Assembly (NCBI GenBank): GCA_944388725.1
Contig: CALXJW010000003.1
Span: forward strand, 1 to 37,108
DNA: 37,108 nucleotides
Reading direction: 5' to 3'
Origin: an uncultured Clostridia bacterium
Lineage (GTDB): Bacteria > Bacillota > Clostridia > TANB77 > CAG-508
Part shown: positions 1,580 through 9,216 of the stretch, piece after piece
Layout of the letters: each line of letters opens with the position of its first letter
How positions within the stretch are numbered: the stretch's first letter is position 1
Position numbers and translations under genes: made by a program
Notes under the pieces: model-generated
Told to the model about the DNA's origin: nothing
What the model saw: the letters and a program-made list of their open reading frames with translations, nothing else
The model's database searches: none

Positions 1580-1648
1580 AACTTTCATCCTTTCAATTTA
1601 AACTTTAAATATTATACTATATATTGGTATTTTTTTCAAGGGGAATTT

Positions 1649-1659
1649 GGGAACGGTTC
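1649..1659. repeat. REP-like motif GGGAACGGTTC just outside the left inverted repeat
   Basis: The AACGGTTC core recurs at 3852-3859 and as the reverse complement GAACCGTTC at 3881-3889. Confidence 0.5.
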
Positions 1660-1660
1660 A

Positions 1661-1824
1661 TGATAAAAACATGATTTTTTTAATATTAATCGAACAATAT
1701 ACTAATACTAAAGTAATTGCTGGATTATATCTTAAGAATTTTCCACTTTTTTAGCTAATATATTAAATATTATTTCTATTTCTTTTGGAGCATTTAATCC
1801 TATTTAAAATCTTATTTTTTCAAG
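1661..1824. repeat. Left copy of a ~165-bp inverted repeat
   Basis: Reverse complement of 3684-3846 aligns by eye with about 11 differences (roughly 93% identity). It includes a long identical core TTTCTATTTCTTTTGGAGCATTTAATCCTATTTAAAATCTTATTTT. Confidence 0.95.
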
Positions 1825-1959
1825 CTAGATTTATATTTTTCTTTTATTAGGTTAAGTGTATTTAGTGCAAATTTTTTGATAAATATTGACTTTTTTTTAT
1901 ATTTTTGATTAAATATTATTGTATGATAAAATATAAAATAATAAACAAGGAGAAAACAA

Positions 1960-3561
1960 ATGAAAAAGAAAATAATAGGCATTATAATCGTAATGCTAAT
2001 AATATTTATGTGCAATATGTCAAGTATTTATGCATATAATGAAAATTATAAAGTAAGTGATGATAAAAATCGATATGATGCTATTGCTTATACAAGTAAT
2101 GGTGGTTATGTAGTAGTAGGGAATGCAAGCGATAGAAAATCAGCATATATATCGGTGTATAATTCTGATGGAAAAAAGATAAAAGAAAAAGCATACGGTG
2201 GACAATTTGATTACTTTTATTCAGTTATACAAACAAATGATAATAATTACATTGCAGTAGGACAAAAAAGTTCACGTTATTCTGATGCACTAATTGTGAA
2301 GTTTGATTCGGATTTAAATGTTATTTGGGAAAATAAATATACTAGTTCTAAATATGCAATATTTAACTCAGTTATTGAAACATCGGACGGAAATCTTGTT
2401 GCAGTAGGAACAGCAGATCAAATTAATGGTAATATTGCACCTGCAAAAGGATTAATAGTAAAATATGATAAAAATGGAAATCAATTATGGGCAAATACAA
2501 TTGGTGGCACATCATATGATGTGTTTAGTTCTGTAGTTGAAACTTCAGATAATTGCTATGCCGTAGTAGGAACATTTAAATCGAAAGATTTAGAAAATCT
2601 TGAAATAAAAGATGAAGCAGATGCTGTTATTTTCAAATATAATAATGATGGTGAACTATTATGGAAAAAAACATATGGTGGTAATAGTTATGATGAATTT
2701 AATTCTATAATAAAAACTTCCGATGGTGGATATATTGCTGTTGGTAGTACTGCTTCAAATAATATTGAAGATATTACAGATAGTGCACAATGGAAATGTT
2801 TAATTGTTAAATATGATAAAAATTTTAATTTGTTATGGAATAGAGGGTACGGCTCTGGACATCAATCAGGATTTTTAGATGTTGTAGAATTACAAAATAA
2901 TGACATTATTGCAGTGGGTGAAACATATAGTATTGCTCCAATTCAACATGGAATCATAATACAATATGATTCTAATGGAAATACAATTTCTACTGAAAGT
3001 ACTTCACCAGAAGATAATGTGCAATATAGTTCTATTACTACAGGTGATAATAATTTTATAATTATAGAGACTAATCTTACGACTAACACGAGTAAAGTAA
3101 TAAAATACAGCTATGATATAGAAAATAACGAAGAAATCGCAATTGAAAATATAAGTTTAAATAAAACAGAATTAAATATAACAGAAGGAGATAGTTATAA
3201 TTTAATTGCTACAATTACACCTTCTGAAGCAACAAATAGAACTTTAACTTGGTCAAGCAATAATGAAAATGTCGCTAAAGTTGAAGATGGAAAAGTAACA
3301 GGACTTTCAGAAGGCACAGCAATTATTACTGTTACAACAAAAGATGGGAATTATTCCACAAGCTGTAGAGTAACTGTTTCAAAAAAATTAGATACATCAG
3401 ATGATGTGAAAGGAGATACAGATAAAAAAGACACAACAATATCAACTGAAAAATTGCCACAAACAGGTGTTAGTATAGCACTAAAAATTAGTATTTTTAG
3501 TGTGATAATAATAGCATTATTATGTTATAAAAAATATTATAATTATAGAGATATAAAATAG
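1960..3561 (+). CDS. Sortase-anchored surface protein: signal peptide, beta-propeller-like repeats, bacterial Ig-like group 2 domain, LPQTG anchor
   Basis: N-terminal KKK plus hydrophobic signal. About six ~50-aa repeats (F.SV..T.DG.Y.AVG...IVKYD..G..LW...YGG). Big_2-like segment (ISLNKTEL...LTWSSNNENVAKVEDGKVTG..EGTAIITVTT.DG). LPQTG followed by TM helix and basic tail. AAGGAG RBS. Confidence 0.85.
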   Translation: MKKKIIGIIIVMLIIFMCNMSSIYAYNENYKVSDDKNRYDAIAYTSNGGYVVVGNASDRKSAYISVYNSDGKKIKEKAYGGQFDYFYSVIQTNDNNYIAVGQKSSRYSDALIVKFDSDLNVIWENKYTSSKYAIFNSVIETSDGNLVAVGTADQINGNIAPAKGLIVKYDKNGNQLWANTIGGTSYDVFSSVVETSDNCYAVVGTFKSKDLENLEIKDEADAVIFKYNNDGELLWKKTYGGNSYDEFNSIIKTSDGGYIAVGSTASNNIEDITDSAQWKCLIVKYDKNFNLLWNRGYGSGHQSGFLDVVELQNNDIIAVGETYSIAPIQHGIIIQYDSNGNTISTESTSPEDNVQYSSITTGDNNFIIIETNLTTNTSKVIKYSYDIENNEEIAIENISLNKTELNITEGDSYNLIATITPSEATNRTLTWSSNNENVAKVEDGKVTGLSEGTAIITVTTKDGNYSTSCRVTVSKKLDTSDDVKGDTDKKDTTISTEKLPQTGVSIALKISIFSVIIIALLCYKKYYNYRDIK

Positions 3562-3590
3562 GAGAAGGACATGAAGTCTTTCTTCTATTT
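3556..3590 (+). terminator. Putative intrinsic terminator of the surface-protein gene
   Basis: AAATAGGAGAAGGAC-atgaa-GTCTTTCTTCTATTT stem with G-U pairs, overlapping the stop codon. Confidence 0.55.
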
Positions 3591-3683
3591 ATATGTTCGG
3601 TTCCTAATAAAATAATTTAAAAGGTGCATAATTAAAATTTATGATATAATGTTAGGCTAATCAAAATTTAATTATAGATGTAT

Positions 3684-3846
3684 CTTGAAGAAAATAAGAT
3701 TTTAAATAGGATTAAATGCTCCAAAAGAAATAGAAAGAATATTTAATATATTAGCTAAAAAAGACGAAAATTCTTAAGATATAATCCAACAATTACTTTA
3801 GTATTATATATTGGTTGATTAGTATTAAATAATCATGTTTTTATCA
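3684..3846. repeat. Right copy of the ~165-bp inverted repeat
   Basis: Reverse complement of 1661-1824; weaker similarity continues about 30 bp further inward. Confidence 0.95.
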
Positions 3847-3851
3847 CAAGT

Positions 3852-3888
3852 AACGGTTCCTCTTTTGTATATAAAAAAGAGAACCGTT
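3852..3888. repeat. REP-like hairpin, probably also the terminator of the yhaN-like gene
   Basis: AACGGTTC(C)TCTTTT-gtatataa-AAAAGAGAACCGTT, about 15 bp beyond the minus-strand stop at 3904. Confidence 0.6.
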
Positions 3889-3903
3889 CTCGAATTTAAC
3901 ATT

Positions 3904-5856
3904 TTATATTTTTATAAGATTAAATTTAATTTTTTCTTTATTTAGAATTTCTTCTTCCCTTTGGGTACAAGTTAATATGATTATTTGTCTATCATCATAT
4001 TCTGAACTTAGATATTTTAAAATATTTTCTAATCTATTAGTATCAAAATAAGCAAAAGCTTCGTCTAAAATTATAGGAACTTTTTCGTTCGATATTTCAT
4101 CTAACATTGCCAATCTTAAAGATAAATATAATTGATCTATTGTTCCTATACTTAATCTCTCTGCCGATACATAATTTCCATCATTTAATTCTACTGTTAA
4201 ACCTTTTTCATCGTTAAAAAATAAATTATTGTATTTTCCATTTGTAATCTTAGAGATATTTTGTGATAATTTTTTTGTAAAAATAGGACTAACATTATTT
4301 TTCATTTTTTCATAAGCTCTTTCTAATAATTTCTTTGTAAGTTCAATACTATTATTCATTTTTTGTAGATTTTCATATTGTTCTTTTAATGAAATTAATT
4401 CTTCTTCTATTTTAGCTAAATCTTCTAATTGAGGTTCAATATTTTCTTTTCTTAAATCTAATTTGTTTATTTCAATTTTATCATTATTTATTTTATTTTC
4501 TATAAAATAAATTTCATCTTCTATTTTATTCAAATTAAATGAATAATTTATTTCATTTTTTTCAATTTTATTTGAATATTTATTTATTAATTTTTCTCTT
4601 TCTAAATTATTTTCAAAATCATTTTTTATTTTTATTTTATTTATTTCATTTAAAATTTCCTGAGAATTTTTTTCTATTATTTTTTCTTCGTTTTCCAAAT
4701 TATTTTTTTCTAAATTTATCTTTTCTTTTTCAATATTATAATTTTTTTCAATGTTTTTTATTTTTTTATTTAATTTATTTTTCAAAAATATTGAACAAAT
4801 TAAAAACATTGGTACTGTAAGAAGAAAAATATATTTAATTAATTTACTTTCTGTTGTTTTTGGAATAAATATTAGCCACAAAATATTAAGTAATAAAATT
4901 ATTGTTCCTATTATTTTTATTTTTTTGTTTAATTTATTTTTTTCATTTTTATTATCAAATTTATTTTTAAAATTGTTTTTTTCATTAATTTTTTCTTCAA
5001 CTGTTTTAATTTTATTTTTTATTTCAGTTATTTTATTTTTATTTTCTTCAATTATTTTTTCTTTTATTTTTATTTTTTCGTTTTCCAAATTATTTTTTTC
5101 TTTTATTTTTTTTATTTCTTTTAATAATTCATTTTTTGTTTTATTTTTTTCCAAATTATTTTTTATTTCATTTTTATTGTTTTCAATTTCGTATTTTAAT
5201 TTATCATATTTTTTTAATTCGATAATTTTTTCTTCATTTTTTTCTATATTTTTTCTAATTATATTTATTGGTTTTTCCCTACTTCTTTCTGTTCCAATTT
5301 CATCCAATTGTTTTTTATTAAGTTTCTCCATTGCTTTTTTATACGAAATACTATCCTCGCCTGTCCCTAAGAGATTAGATATTTTTTGTATAAGGAGATT
5401 TTGCGTATCTCTTCCAATTTTTACCTCTTGTTGCATGGCAATTGATGTTGCTAAAAACATTTCTTCTGTTATCTGTGTTTGCTCATAAAAAAATTCACTT
5501 CCCTTATTTTTATCAATATTAAATTCTTTTGTTATTTCTTCCCCATTTTGATTAAATATTTTTGGATTTTTTTTATTAAATTGTCTAAATATTTCATATT
5601 TATTTTTATTATCTAATTCATATATTAATTTCCCTGAAAATTCTTCACTTTCCCATGGTTTATATTTTTCAAAATCAGATATATCTCTTCCTTTTTTATT
5701 TTTTGATGTTCCATATAATATATTTAATATGAATTTTAACAATGTCGATTTTCCACTTTCATTTTCTCCATAAATTATATTTATATTATTTGTTAAATTT
5801 ATTTCTTTATTTTTTAGCTTCCCATATGCATTTACTTTAATTGAGTTAATTTTCAA
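3904..5856 (-). CDS. YhaN/SbcC-like SMC-type ABC ATPase with coiled coils and an internal hydrophobic hairpin
   Basis: Walker A GENESGKST, signature LSIGT, Walker B ILDEAF, long K/E/N coiled coils and two internal TM-like segments. Likely TTG start at 5856 after AAGGAG (track GTG 5865). Confidence 0.85.
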   Translation of the reverse strand: MKINSIKVNAYGKLKNKEINLTNNINIIYGENESGKSTLLKFILNILYGTSKNKKGRDISDFEKYKPWESEEFSGKLIYELDNKNKYEIFRQFNKKNPKIFNQNGEEITKEFNIDKNKGSEFFYEQTQITEEMFLATSIAMQQEVKIGRDTQNLLIQKISNLLGTGEDSISYKKAMEKLNKKQLDEIGTERSREKPINIIRKNIEKNEEKIIELKKYDKLKYEIENNKNEIKNNLEKNKTKNELLKEIKKIKEKNNLENEKIKIKEKIIEENKNKITEIKNKIKTVEEKINEKNNFKNKFDNKNEKNKLNKKIKIIGTIILLLNILWLIFIPKTTESKLIKYIFLLTVPMFLICSIFLKNKLNKKIKNIEKNYNIEKEKINLEKNNLENEEKIIEKNSQEILNEINKIKIKNDFENNLEREKLINKYSNKIEKNEINYSFNLNKIEDEIYFIENKINNDKIEINKLDLRKENIEPQLEDLAKIEEELISLKEQYENLQKMNNSIELTKKLLERAYEKMKNNVSPIFTKKLSQNISKITNGKYNNLFFNDEKGLTVELNDGNYVSAERLSIGTIDQLYLSLRLAMLDEISNEKVPIILDEAFAYFDTNRLENILKYLSSEYDDRQIIILTCTQREEEILNKEKIKFNLIKI

Positions 5857-5861
5857 AAATA

Positions 5862-6938
5862 TCACTCCTTATCTAATATTTCCATGCCAATTTCTAATGC
5901 TTTTTCTATTGTTTGTTCATCATAATTTAGTTTTTTCATTTCTTCTATTACTTCTTTTACAAATAATCCTTTTAATGTATTTTCTTTTGAAATTTTTTCT
6001 ACATCATAATTTGGTTTTGTTTGGTCTTTTATTTTTATTATTTTTTGGTTTAGTTCATATTTATATAAATCATAAATATTTATTTCAAAATTTCTTTTTC
6101 CAGATAAAATTATTTTATATAATTTATTTTCTGCTAATTCTATTTCATTTATTTTTTCTATTAGTTGTTCCACAGAATTTATTTCTGTACATTTTAATTC
6201 TGCTTCTACAAATTTTGTTTCATCTAATTCAATAAATTCTAATTCATTTTTATCTTTTTTTATTTCTCCTGTTATCATTCCGTGTTTACCAAGTTCATCA
6301 AATCCTAAAGATATAGTAGAACCTGGATATATTATTTTTCCATTTGGTATAAAATTATTTTTATGTATATGCCCTAGTGCAACATAGTCAAACCCTATTT
6401 TTTGTAATTGAGCACTACTTATTGGATTATAATCTTTTAAATCTGTTAAACAAGCATCTAATGTACCATGTACTAGAAATATATTTATTTTTTCTTTATT
6501 TTCTATTTTTATTTCTTCGAGATTCATTTTTGAGCAATAAAAATCATCAAATCCAAATCCATATATATTTACTTCTTCCAACTCCACTTTATCTATTTTA
6601 GATTTAAATATATAAACATTTTTATTCCAATTATAATTACAGTAATATGAATTTTTTAAATATGGATCATGATTTCCTGGTGATATAAATATTTTTGTAT
6701 TCTCTATCTCTTTAAATAAATTATTTATATATTCTATTGTAGATTGTCTTATGTATTGTTGATCGTATAAATCTCCTGATATAAACAAAAATTCTATATC
6801 ATTTTCTTTTATATAATTAATTACTTTTTTAAATATTTTTCTTTGTTCTAATCTTCTTTTTTCTCCTAAATTTCCTTTATCTGATAGTGTAGTAAATGGT
6901 GTATCAAAATGTATATCTGCTATATGTACAAATTTCAT
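5862..6938 (-). CDS. YhaO/SbcD (Mre11-like) metallophosphoesterase nuclease
   Basis: Motifs ADIHFD, SGDLYD, PGNHD, VHG, ALGHIH and YPGS; abuts the ATPase gene. Confidence 0.9.
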   Translation of the reverse strand: MKFVHIADIHFDTPFTTLSDKGNLGEKRRLEQRKIFKKVINYIKENDIEFLFISGDLYDQQYIRQSTIEYINNLFKEIENTKIFISPGNHDPYLKNSYYCNYNWNKNVYIFKSKIDKVELEEVNIYGFGFDDFYCSKMNLEEIKIENKEKINIFLVHGTLDACLTDLKDYNPISSAQLQKIGFDYVALGHIHKNNFIPNGKIIYPGSTISLGFDELGKHGMITGEIKKDKNELEFIELDETKFVEAELKCTEINSVEQLIEKINEIELAENKLYKIILSGKRNFEINIYDLYKYELNQKIIKIKDQTKPNYDVEKISKENTLKGLFVKEVIEEMKKLNYDEQTIEKALEIGMEILDKE

Positions 6939-7156: not shown

Positions 7157-9196
7157 TTATTCATCATCTATAGGTCCAAACAATTCATCAAATTTTGCTT
7201 CCAATTCTTTTTGCAAATCATATGTATCTTCTTCTTCCTCAACTTGAGGAGTTACCTTTTTGCTTTCTTTTTCTACTGAAGTATTATCTTCAAATAAATC
7301 ATCTATAGATTGTATTTCTTCAGATTGTTTTGATTCTATATTCTGTTTTACTTCATTGTTTTCTTTTTTTTCTTCTTTTGATGGTGTATCATCTTCAAAT
7401 AAATCATCTAAGGATTCAACCTTTAAATTTTCTCTTTGTTTATCATTATTGTCTTCTGTCCATGGATTATATGGATTAAATTTTCTCCAATTTCCTCTTC
7501 GGATCTCTCCTATATCATTATGACTTATTTCTACTTTCGCTAAGTCATTAGACATCTTTTTATGTTTAAAATAATAAAATTTATTTGCTTTTACAGGTTT
7601 TATACCCTTTTCAAATATTATACATAAGTCATTATCCATTCTCCTAAGTTCATCAGGTGTCATTAATGCTCTTGCCATTACCTGGTCTGATGTACTTTGT
7701 CCTGTTTTAAAATATTTTCTATCCCTATTTATTGATATACTATCTCTTTCTATTGTTTTTTCACCTAATGCTTTTGAAAAATATTCTACTGTTTTATATG
7801 AGTTACTACCCAAAAATACATGTGTATCACAGTTACCTATGATTGTTTCATAAGATTTTTCATAAACAGCTTCTAATTGATCTAAGTTTTGTAATATTAC
7901 ACTAAATGATATCTTCCTACTTCTTGATGTTGATATTTTTTTATCAAAATCAGGGATTTTTCCTATATTAGCAAACTCATCTAATATAAAATATGTTGGT
8001 ACTTTTAATTTTCCACCATTTCGATCAGCAAAGTCATACAATTGTTGTATCATTTGTGAGAAAAATATTGTTAATAAAAAGTCATATGCTGTATGTGTGT
8101 CTGAAGATATAACATATACTGCTGTTTTTTTACTACCTATTTCTTCAAAATTTATTGTGTCTGTTGATGTTAGTTCTGCAATTTCTTTAGAGTCAAATTT
8201 TCCTAATTTTGATTGTAAAGTACTTAATATAGAACTATATGTTTTCTCTGGCGCTATTTCTATTGACTTATAATTCATTCTTGCTGGATGGTCATATGGT
8301 AATTTACTTATTAATTCTGTTAATAAATTGCTTCCTCCATTAGAATTTGCTGCTCTTACTAGTTCTGCACAACTTGCTAAGTTTTGTTCTTCTTCCGGTC
8401 TTGTTGCCATTAAATAATATATTAATGCTTTTAATAACATTTCTGCAGAGTCATCCCAAAATGGTTCCGCAGTAGATCCTTCTGTTTTTTGTCCTTTTAC
8501 TATGGTATTTGCAATAACATCTACATCTATCTCTGATGCAATATGCATTAATGGGTTATACCCATCACTATATTGTGGTCTAACTAAATTTAACACCTTA
8601 ATATCATATCCATTTGCTTTTAAATATCCAGCAGTTCTATCATATAGCTCTCCCTTTGGGTCTGTAAAAACATATGACCCTAATAATTGGTATGCATTTG
8701 GTATTGAGTATGATGCTGATTTACCAGAACCTGAACCTCCGACTACTAACACATTGACGTTTCCTCTTTTATCTACTGGTAAATAATTATCTTCCGCTAA
8801 TATTATTCCTTTTTTATTACTTAATATTTGATATTGCTCTCCATTTTTGCTCCAATCACTTGATCCATGTTCAAAATCTGTATATTCATTTTTAGGAGCA
8901 GACCTTGCAACTCCTACTATAAAAAATATTGCATAAATTATTGAAAATATTGCTAAATTTTTTATATATAATGACATATAACTTCTATTTACTAACTCTG
9001 CAAATCCTTTAGCAGGATTCGTTATAGTAGTTGTAAATATTTTTATGCCTTCTTCAAAGTTTTTCTGATCAGTTGCAACATTAAATCCTAAAGTTATAGG
9101 CACGATTAATACTATGGCTATAAATAACCATAGTATTCCAAATAATATAAAATATTTTTTATTTCTTCTTAAAGCTCCTTCTACTTTATAGTTCAT
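7157..9196 (-). CDS. virD4: VirD4/TraG-family type IV secretion coupling protein (ATPase)
   Basis: Two N-terminal TM helices, HGSSDW, Walker A VVGGSGSGKS, FTDPKGEL, YNPL, FWDDSA, Walker B ILDEFANIG, SRSRKI, LQNLDQL, LMTPDELRRM, acidic C-tail. Start ATG 9196 after GAAGGTG (track GTG 9205). Confidence 0.93.
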   Translation of the reverse strand: MNYKVEGALRRNKKYFILFGILWLFIAIVLIVPITLGFNVATDQKNFEEGIKIFTTTITNPAKGFAELVNRSYMSLYIKNLAIFSIIYAIFFIVGVARSAPKNEYTDFEHGSSDWSKNGEQYQILSNKKGIILAEDNYLPVDKRGNVNVLVVGGSGSGKSASYSIPNAYQLLGSYVFTDPKGELYDRTAGYLKANGYDIKVLNLVRPQYSDGYNPLMHIASEIDVDVIANTIVKGQKTEGSTAEPFWDDSAEMLLKALIYYLMATRPEEEQNLASCAELVRAANSNGGSNLLTELISKLPYDHPARMNYKSIEIAPEKTYSSILSTLQSKLGKFDSKEIAELTSTDTINFEEIGSKKTAVYVISSDTHTAYDFLLTIFFSQMIQQLYDFADRNGGKLKVPTYFILDEFANIGKIPDFDKKISTSRSRKISFSVILQNLDQLEAVYEKSYETIIGNCDTHVFLGSNSYKTVEYFSKALGEKTIERDSISINRDRKYFKTGQSTSDQVMARALMTPDELRRMDNDLCIIFEKGIKPVKANKFYYFKHKKMSNDLAKVEISHNDIGEIRRGNWRKFNPYNPWTEDNNDKQRENLKVESLDDLFEDDTPSKEEKKENNEVKQNIESKQSEEIQSIDDLFEDNTSVEKESKKVTPQVEEEEDTYDLQKELEAKFDELFGPIDDE

Positions 9197-9216
9197 ATGT
9201 ATCACCTTCTCTTTTG

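Follow-up and report, generated by a model that had tools for sequence, protein, structure and literature searches.

How a predicted surface-protein gene came to lie between two long inverted repeats is the question raised by a 37,108-nucleotide stretch of DNA (hereafter the window) from an uncultured Clostridia bacterium (assembly GCA_944388725.1, i.e. genome G000; contig CALXJW010000003.1). The gene, referred to as the cargo gene, stands between prfA and a gene for an AAA_27-domain protein, and the original prediction had proposed a non-autonomous cargo-carrying element, an invertible segment or an exchangeable cassette for surface proteins. The first of these was right in kind, as both repeat arms are derived from an insertion sequence (IS) and a probable target duplication flanks the unit. 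By homology, each arm is the truncated right end of an ISAs1-family IS. The feature is real, and known biology accounts for it, its layout being somewhat unusual; from the comparisons below, the unit is probably the relic of an inverted ISAs1 composite transposon that inserted the surface-protein gene in one step and can no longer move.

The repeat was examined by local alignment and blastn. Positions 1661-1850 matched the reverse complement of 3657-3846 with 90.1% identity over 192 columns (E 3e-66), extending about 25 nt further inward than the intervals first noticed (i.e. 1661-1824 and 3684-3846). The initial estimate of about 93% identity came close, with 150 of 165 positions (90.9%) identical over the first 165 columns counted from the IS terminus at 1659. 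An ungapped arm core (1703-1818/3691-3806) was 97% identical over 116 nt, and the longest perfect run between the arms was 46 nt (1773-1818, as positioned from contig breaks). The host assembly comprises 1.28 Mb in 149 contigs, is 91% complete and has a GC content of 26% (25% in the window). The genome-wide BLAST that had been recommended detected no other pair and no third arm copy in G000, all other matches among those listed being short with an E of at least 1e-6. A dispersed genomic repeat family was rejected on the basis of just two copies, and the suggestion that the repeats might be abundant solitary elements did not survive, the arms being the only two copies in G000. As claimed originally, exactly one gene was enclosed, opposite to its neighbours. 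The features of the locus (positions, strand, description) are:

518-1588, opposite to the cargo gene: prfA (open reading frame (ORF) annotation).
1611-1639, minus strand: intact predicted prfA promoter TTGAAA-17-TATAAT, which scored highest in the scan (11/12) and lies beyond the element.
1643-1658, plus strand: 5' part of a hairpin resembling repetitive extragenic palindromes (REP-like), matching the consensus of 34 paired G000 copies at 14/16.
1650-1658: left 9-mer GGAACGGTT, probable target-duplication copy, matching 3850-3858 at 8/9.
1659-1880, minus strand: left arm, ISAs1-type right end, 87.9% identical over 223 nt to the right end of the G611 IS (L049, 940-1161).
1881-1959, plus strand: DNA upstream of the cargo gene and belonging to it, containing a ribosome-binding site and, at 1905-1932, a predicted sigma-70-type promoter (TTGATT-16-TAAAAT).
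1960-3561, plus strand: cargo gene for a predicted surface protein of 533 amino acids, the sole ORF of at least 80 amino acids between the arms.
3556-3590, plus strand: hairpin over the cargo stop codon, a probable terminator (-18.1 kcal/mol, z -4.36).
3657-3849, plus strand: right arm, a second ISAs1-type right end inverted with respect to the left arm, 83.9% identical over 174 nt (3673-3845) to the G611 IS.
3850-3897, plus strand: right 9-mer GTAACGGTT (3850-3858) followed by the remainder of the REP-like hairpin (fold z about -5, both strands).
3904-5865, opposite to the cargo gene: AAA_27 ('yhaN'-like) gene (ORF annotation).

The locus was also examined in contigs of seven metagenome runs (X1, X5, X6, X9, X11, X12 and X16), X1 being a possible source of the assembly. 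The junction between prfA and the left arm was present in all seven runs and that between the right arm and the AAA_27 gene in six (all but X6). Apart from the possible source, contigs of six studies contained the left junction and contigs of five the right, with 0-3 differences, and a 1932-bp contig spanned from inner arm to inner arm (core to core) in X1, X5 and X6. The inverted repeat is not an assembly artefact, because contigs of independent studies join each arm to its own flank. The 20 runs containing this DNA were labelled mostly as chicken-gut or gut metagenomes, and some as soil. A strain haplotype common to X6 and X16 was observed at 1658, 1694, 1868, 2020, 3595 and 3605 (1868 in X16 only); its T1658C change alters the last base of the left 9-mer copy and its base at 1694 is of the outgroup type.

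Each arm contains the last 30-50 or so codons of a transposase gene and a further 72 nt finishing in the right terminal repeat. In the left arm, about 49 transposase 3' codons, interrupted by one frameshift and a nonsense codon, were found on the minus strand (tblastn 68-72%); the right arm retains about 30 codons and the same nonsense codon (tblastn 69%). In a sliding comparison against shuffles, IS homology ended about 220 nt in on the left (about 1880) and about 175-190 nt in on the right. Excluding the first 20 bp, which are common to both IS ends, identity to the right end of the IS in genome G032 was 86/97 as compared to 56/101 and 48/98 for the G032 left end. The whole unit (1659-3849) is 2191 bp. 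Its left terminal repeat begins at 1659 with CATG where CAGG is expected, and alignment showed the terminal 4-5 nt of the right arm to be decayed (ACAA where CTG is expected). No stubs of this IS type other than the two arms were found in G000. That the repeats greatly exceed typical IS ends in length, as was first observed, no longer poses a puzzle: just 20 bp belong to the terminal repeat itself, and what remains consists of the 3' end of transposase and of subterminal DNA. The reported lack of a transposase or recombinase in the window holds for complete genes among the ORFs (seven of which were scanned with Pfam) but not for fragments, as the arms contain transposase 3' ends. A small ORF or small RNA in the arms was rejected as a candidate, six-frame translation yielding broken frames only, namely the transposase tail; the outer 102 nt of the arm folded no better than shuffles (z -1.3), with Rfam outside this search.

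Relatives retain the parent IS. In a search of 61 genomes, the outer 115 bp or so of the arm was found at contig ends in G032, which is where multicopy elements usually leave their trace. Across the genus, matches were obtained in nine of 337 genomes, six of which (G032, G611, G483, G558, G529 and G598) were judged real; matches in G567, G555 and G593 were judged to be chance or unrelated. The longer matches, in G611 and G483, corresponded to the 3' end of an ORF, and these ORFs scored 226 and 213 bits, respectively, against NF033564 (ISAs1 transposase; cut-off 70) and also matched DDE_Tnp_1 and DDE_Tnp_1_assoc, indicating that the parent IS of the arms encodes an ISAs1 transposase. G529 and G598 contained solitary, trimmed right-end relics. 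A family-wide search produced a single match in 400, on a contig agreeing in length and coordinates with one of G032 and hence not independent, and all five matches of a genome_contigs scan were at contig ends. No arm copies were detected in plasmid or viral contig collections; the one arm match in a metagenome scan was rejected as chance similarity within a coding region.

The ends and target duplications of this IS could be read from such copies. Left and right ends of the parent IS share 20 bp, CAGGATAAAAACATGATTTT, starting with CAGG and having A as the fifth base. A complete copy in G483 (L050, 275-1695; 1421 bp) has a 9-bp duplication matching at 9/9, and in G032 all four left ends pair one-to-one with four right ends at 9/9. 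Duplications of 9/9 were likewise observed for the G557 IS and for one pair of G000 contig ends (C93 and C41), and a MITE (miniature inverted-repeat transposable element) of G558 has a flanking duplication of 8/9, two other MITE copies being without a match. As read here, these copies set a 9-bp duplication and 20-bp ends for this ISAs1 clade, the G492 IS being without a duplication. Four contig ends in G000 (C24, C41, C74 and C93) start with CAGGATAAAGACATGA and match both ends of the full-length ISAs1 of G492, the left-type ends among them also resembling the G557 copy. No assembled ISAs1 transposase (i.e. no NF033564 match) was found in G000. Because these four contig ends match both ends of the G492 ISAs1, a second, multicopy ISAs1 of the G492/G557 type with a near-identical terminal repeat is probably resident in G000 though its body is unassembled. 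The C93 insertion adjoins a REP-like hairpin.

Other elements of this group were noted in passing. The MITE-like elements of G558 are about 275-290 bp long (L117:195-484, L118:226-515 and L119:961-1234) and share this ISAs1 terminal repeat, but their interior is not related to the IS copies of G483 and G492. In G557 (C28; L171:6432-9562), an ISAs1 with an uninterrupted 402-codon ORF has an IS256-family element nested in its right end and a 9-bp duplication outside. Palindromes of 37-42 bp consisting of two abutting ISAs1 terminal repeats occur at about 1460-1503 of L099 (G022:C12) and about 1498-1534 of L105 (G612:C27); the former is just upstream of another LPxTG-like surface-protein gene and is also in the prfA-AAA_27 interval.

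The borders of the unit point to one insertion event. Direct repeats matching at 8/9 border the 2,191-bp unit if the right end is placed 1 nt further out, at terminal bases that have changed; the window 9-mer matches 5e-5 of genome positions at 8/9 or better on one strand, and 16 end/length combinations were tried. A 10-bp duplication, which looked like 8/10 at first, was discarded, as the 9-bp rule gives 8/9 with the end at 3849. The right flank matched the REP 5' consensus at only 8/16 and is not a second whole REP, and the two REP halves form one canonical copy once the unit and one 9-mer are removed. One hairpin was likely split by a single insertion, because the left flank has the REP 5' consensus, the right flank lacks it and the hairpin remainder lies 3' of the right 9-mer. 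This remainder is the probable terminator of the AAA_27 gene. In G000, the REP-like family itself (GGGACGGTTC...GAACCGTCCC) numbers 34 paired copies, and its core motif occurs 101 times.

Comparison of the interval between prfA and the AAA_27 gene, another check that had been proposed, showed that it does vary among relatives. The interval is 2318 bp here; among the 29 relatives closest in prfA DNA it was 61-1268 bp in 26, including 14 with at most 107 bp, and was unmeasured in three, and for 22 of 29 relatives drawn more broadly it measured 75-1406 bp. Judged by these shorter intervals, it was in this lineage that the block was added. The unit does not include the prfA promoter, and similar sequence was found upstream of prfA in relatives. 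Within the genus (L002-L030 and L130-L157) the interval is a recurrent cargo slot ranging from 61 bp to >2 kb, with differing genes and hairpins across species. Elsewhere in the window, a gene for a VirD4/TraG-like coupling protein (7157-9205; PF02534, E 6e-86) lies amid housekeeping genes and is not accompanied by any further obvious gene for type IV secretion (neighbours not Pfam-scanned), and genes for a 460-amino-acid membrane-anchored protein and a 431-amino-acid CHAP-domain protein are located at the contig end (34364-37042).

The cargo protein has a hydrophobic N-terminus, an all-beta propeller-like domain, a Big_2 Ig domain (PF02368, E 9e-15) and an LPQTG motif with a hydrophobic segment and basic tail, and is predicted to be surface-anchored; five sortase-domain matches were found in the genome. 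A single-sequence structural model (predicted local distance difference test score 75.7) gave CylK and other beta-propellers as best folds, a resemblance that, at about 20% identity to CylK, does not imply CylK chemistry. As first described, the gene is enclosed with its upstream region and terminator, the predicted promoter (1905-1932) and the hairpin (3556-3590) both lying between the arms, although the overall count of promoter-like sites was no higher than in shuffles and the hairpin was missed by a consensus terminator scan. Cargo orthologues or the cargo domain were present in three of the 337 genus genomes. Orthologues in G553 (84% amino acid identity) and G649 (65%) are at other loci without IS ends, and the same cassette was not seen elsewhere, no IS ends being found at the genus cargo-domain loci that were read; homologues of 70-79% occurred among Logan/ENA matches. 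Homology to G553 DNA begins at about 1873-1880, which is where IS homology of the left arm stops, and a short T-rich overlap at this position is common to the IS and the donor-like DNA.

These observations are consistent with the following history. Two inverted ISAs1 copies would have flanked the gene in a donor, and transposase would have paired the two outer right ends and inserted the block upstream of prfA; such right-end/right-end use is plausible because the left and right termini are identical for the first 20 bp. The inner 1.2 kb or so of each IS would have been deleted afterwards, on the left at the short T-rich microhomology just upstream of the cargo promoter, so that the gene would have kept its promoter and terminator. 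The arms may later have recombined or undergone gene conversion, yielding a shared nonsense codon and a more identical core. Differences between the arms are concentrated in the outer part, with 10 in 45 outer columns as compared to 4 in the next 115 (Fisher p 0.0005, with the boundary chosen post hoc), and bases common to both arms but absent from outgroups lie in the inner part. The latter also contains the shared CAA>TAA stop, about 28 codons before the transposase end and within the 46-bp identical core. This pattern suggests gene conversion or recombination between the arms after inactivation, or descent from one dead copy. Present mobility of the unit is unlikely, because both termini lack CAGG and no second locus was found.

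Several points weigh against this history. Two separate deletions ending about 220 and about 175-190 bp from the ends must be accepted as a coincidence, no long-armed intermediate was found, the right-hand breakpoint has no donor sequence for comparison, and a dead parent copy would account equally well for the nonsense codon in both arms. At 8/9 the duplication falls short of a perfect match and depends on the 1-nt outward shift of the right end; among related elements, matching flanks were lacking for the G492 IS and the L117 MITE of G558, and a third family copy matched at only 6/9. This REP was present at the prfA-AAA_27 site in none of the relatives compared. Lastly, the empty allele that the original prediction had proposed looking for was not found within the species, no joint skipping the unit occurring among the matches listed for contigs of the seven runs.

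The alternative that fares best is a mobile insertion cassette (MIC), i.e. a short-armed unit that formed first and was then moved in trans by a resident ISAs1 transposase, in the manner of MIC231 and IS231. Similar arm lengths and a shared stop would be expected if both arms were copied from one dead stub, a related ISAs1 transposase is probably present but unassembled in G000 (the CAGGATAAAGACATGA contig ends), and the IS clade also yields MITEs of about 290 bp in G558. The MIC description in the accessible part of PMC6199540 likewise fits a 2.2-kb unit with a self-contained gene and a probable flanking duplication. However, the unit exists in one copy only, both termini have lost CAGG, G000 has no assembled ISAs1 transposase, and no right-end pair was found around other cargo in the 337 genus genomes (in one search scoring two candidates per genome and another using a pattern that misses some end variants). 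We regard this alternative as unlikely, if worth keeping in mind. The absence of other cargo between such arms across the genus also leaves the notion of an exchangeable cassette without support. A broader proposal, that ISAs1 'double right-end' stubs of about 200 bp capture surface genes, move in trans and then serve as flipping arms, is more doubtful again. Were the short-armed unit mobile in trans, the MICs would come to include ISAs1, in an unusual right-end/right-end arrangement, and the end sequences that suffice for ISAs1 transposition would be defined as a small set.

Chance pairing or local duplication of the arms is improbable as compared to a composite transposon relic. In this scenario, which covers two unrelated insertions as well as one relic copied in inverted form, the gene arrived separately and the 9-mers reflect REP similarity. 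Solitary right-end relics are known in the genus, the interval is a cargo hotspot and REP-like motifs are abundant (101 core motifs, 34 pairs), all of which would favour coincidence. Against this, the assembly has no stubs of this IS type besides the two arms, the arms share derived bases, and the REP halves rejoin canonically without the unit and one 9-mer, the right side being without the REP 5' consensus.

A programmed invertible segment (i.e. a phase-variation switch), subject to a site-specific recombinase whose gene lies elsewhere, is slightly less credible still. The cargo is a predicted surface protein, ten tyrosine-recombinase-domain matches were found in the genome, and one contig from X9, with a depth of 3.6, connects 1772 with 3736 across opposite strands. 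This joint, however, runs through the 46-bp identity, which is not resolvable by a 31-mer graph. In a coordinate-only simulation, the X9 pattern arose in 0.5-3% of low-depth samples without inversion and in 2-6% of those with it; the evidence for inversion is weak because the resulting likelihood ratio is just 1.4-6.7. As to the two orientations, for which read mapping had been advised, contigs of the seven runs gave this one inverted join, one canonical join (X12) and five uninformative breaks at the repeat. IS origin accounts for the arms in full, and the unit has no recombinase gene next to it. In known invertible switches the promoter is inside and the target gene outside, or the tip of a gene is variable; here the gene, its predicted promoter and its hairpin are all inside, so flipping would not switch the cargo, and the outlying prfA promoter would be left untouched. 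What stands of the proposed invertible segment is occasional homologous recombination: inversion is possible only in this form, and recombination between the arms would permit it with the cargo promoter unchanged. Although the assembly is fragmented and metagenome-derived, an artefact has practically no probability given arms that differ at about 10% of sites, junction contigs from other studies and the spanning contig in three runs.

Among known systems, the parent IS resembles the ISAs1 family (NF033564; H-repeat type, e.g. IS1548) in its transposase, length of about 1.4 kb, 20-bp CAGG repeats and, around several copies, short duplications. The family is described in the available part of PMC11946415 as having ends of 14-22 bp starting with CAGGG and 10-bp duplications; this clade differs from that description in duplicating 9 bp and in having ends that start with CAGGA. 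ISAs1 copies bound inversions in Streptococcus pyogenes, according to the accessible text of PMC11602124. The unit in the window is not itself an ISAs1 IS, having two right-end stubs only (30-50 or so codons with a stop), no left end and no transposase.

IMU and TIME-COMP elements, as far as covered by the available text of PMC3184786, PMC4133298 and PMC13367494, are similar in that two non-autonomous units of about 200-300 bp bracket a cargo and transposase is needed in trans. Their arms are whole Tn3-derived MITEs with a terminal repeat at each end; the arms described here are ISAs1-derived and have one terminal repeat each, and so do not belong with them. MICs (e.g. MIC231 of Bacillus cereus, IS231/IS4 family) are outlined in the accessible parts of PMC6199540 and PMC3913671 as two IS-derived inverted repeats around a passenger gene, without a transposase, 0.7-3 kb in length, with a target duplication and mobilised in trans. 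The unit has this structure, with IS-derived inverted repeats, a passenger and no transposase within 2191 bp. It differs from MIC231 in deriving from ISAs1 instead of IS231, in having right ends that keep transposase 3' codons as both arms, and in its decayed termini; it was not filed as a MIC because these termini are not intact (all full-length copies have CAGG where the unit has CATG at its left end and TTGTG at its right). No description of an ISAs1 right-end/right-end cassette was found in the open literature, ISfinder and subscription journals being outside this search.

Composite transposons bounded by inverted IS copies have the layout of Tn10 and Tn5. Like them, the unit is bordered on either side by one kind of IS end, encloses a passenger gene and has a probable duplication beyond its borders. 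The IS is present around the passenger in two copies, as relics (arms 90% alike with shared derived bases), and the probable outside duplication is 8/9 with a 1-nt shift of the right end beside a split REP. Both IS copies are cut to about 190-220 bp, so that the unit cannot move by itself, and it was not filed as an intact composite because no transposase remains in the flanking IS. ISAs1 transposition is little studied, and composite transposition by a member of this family is reportedly the subject of a study of IS1358. As read here, the locus is a clean fossil of IS-mediated gene acquisition, in which ISAs1 elements of uncultured gut Clostridia probably brought in a surface-protein gene in composite form. 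The unit is best described as working like a composite transposon turned MIC-like relic, i.e. as a variant of known IS-derived cassettes.

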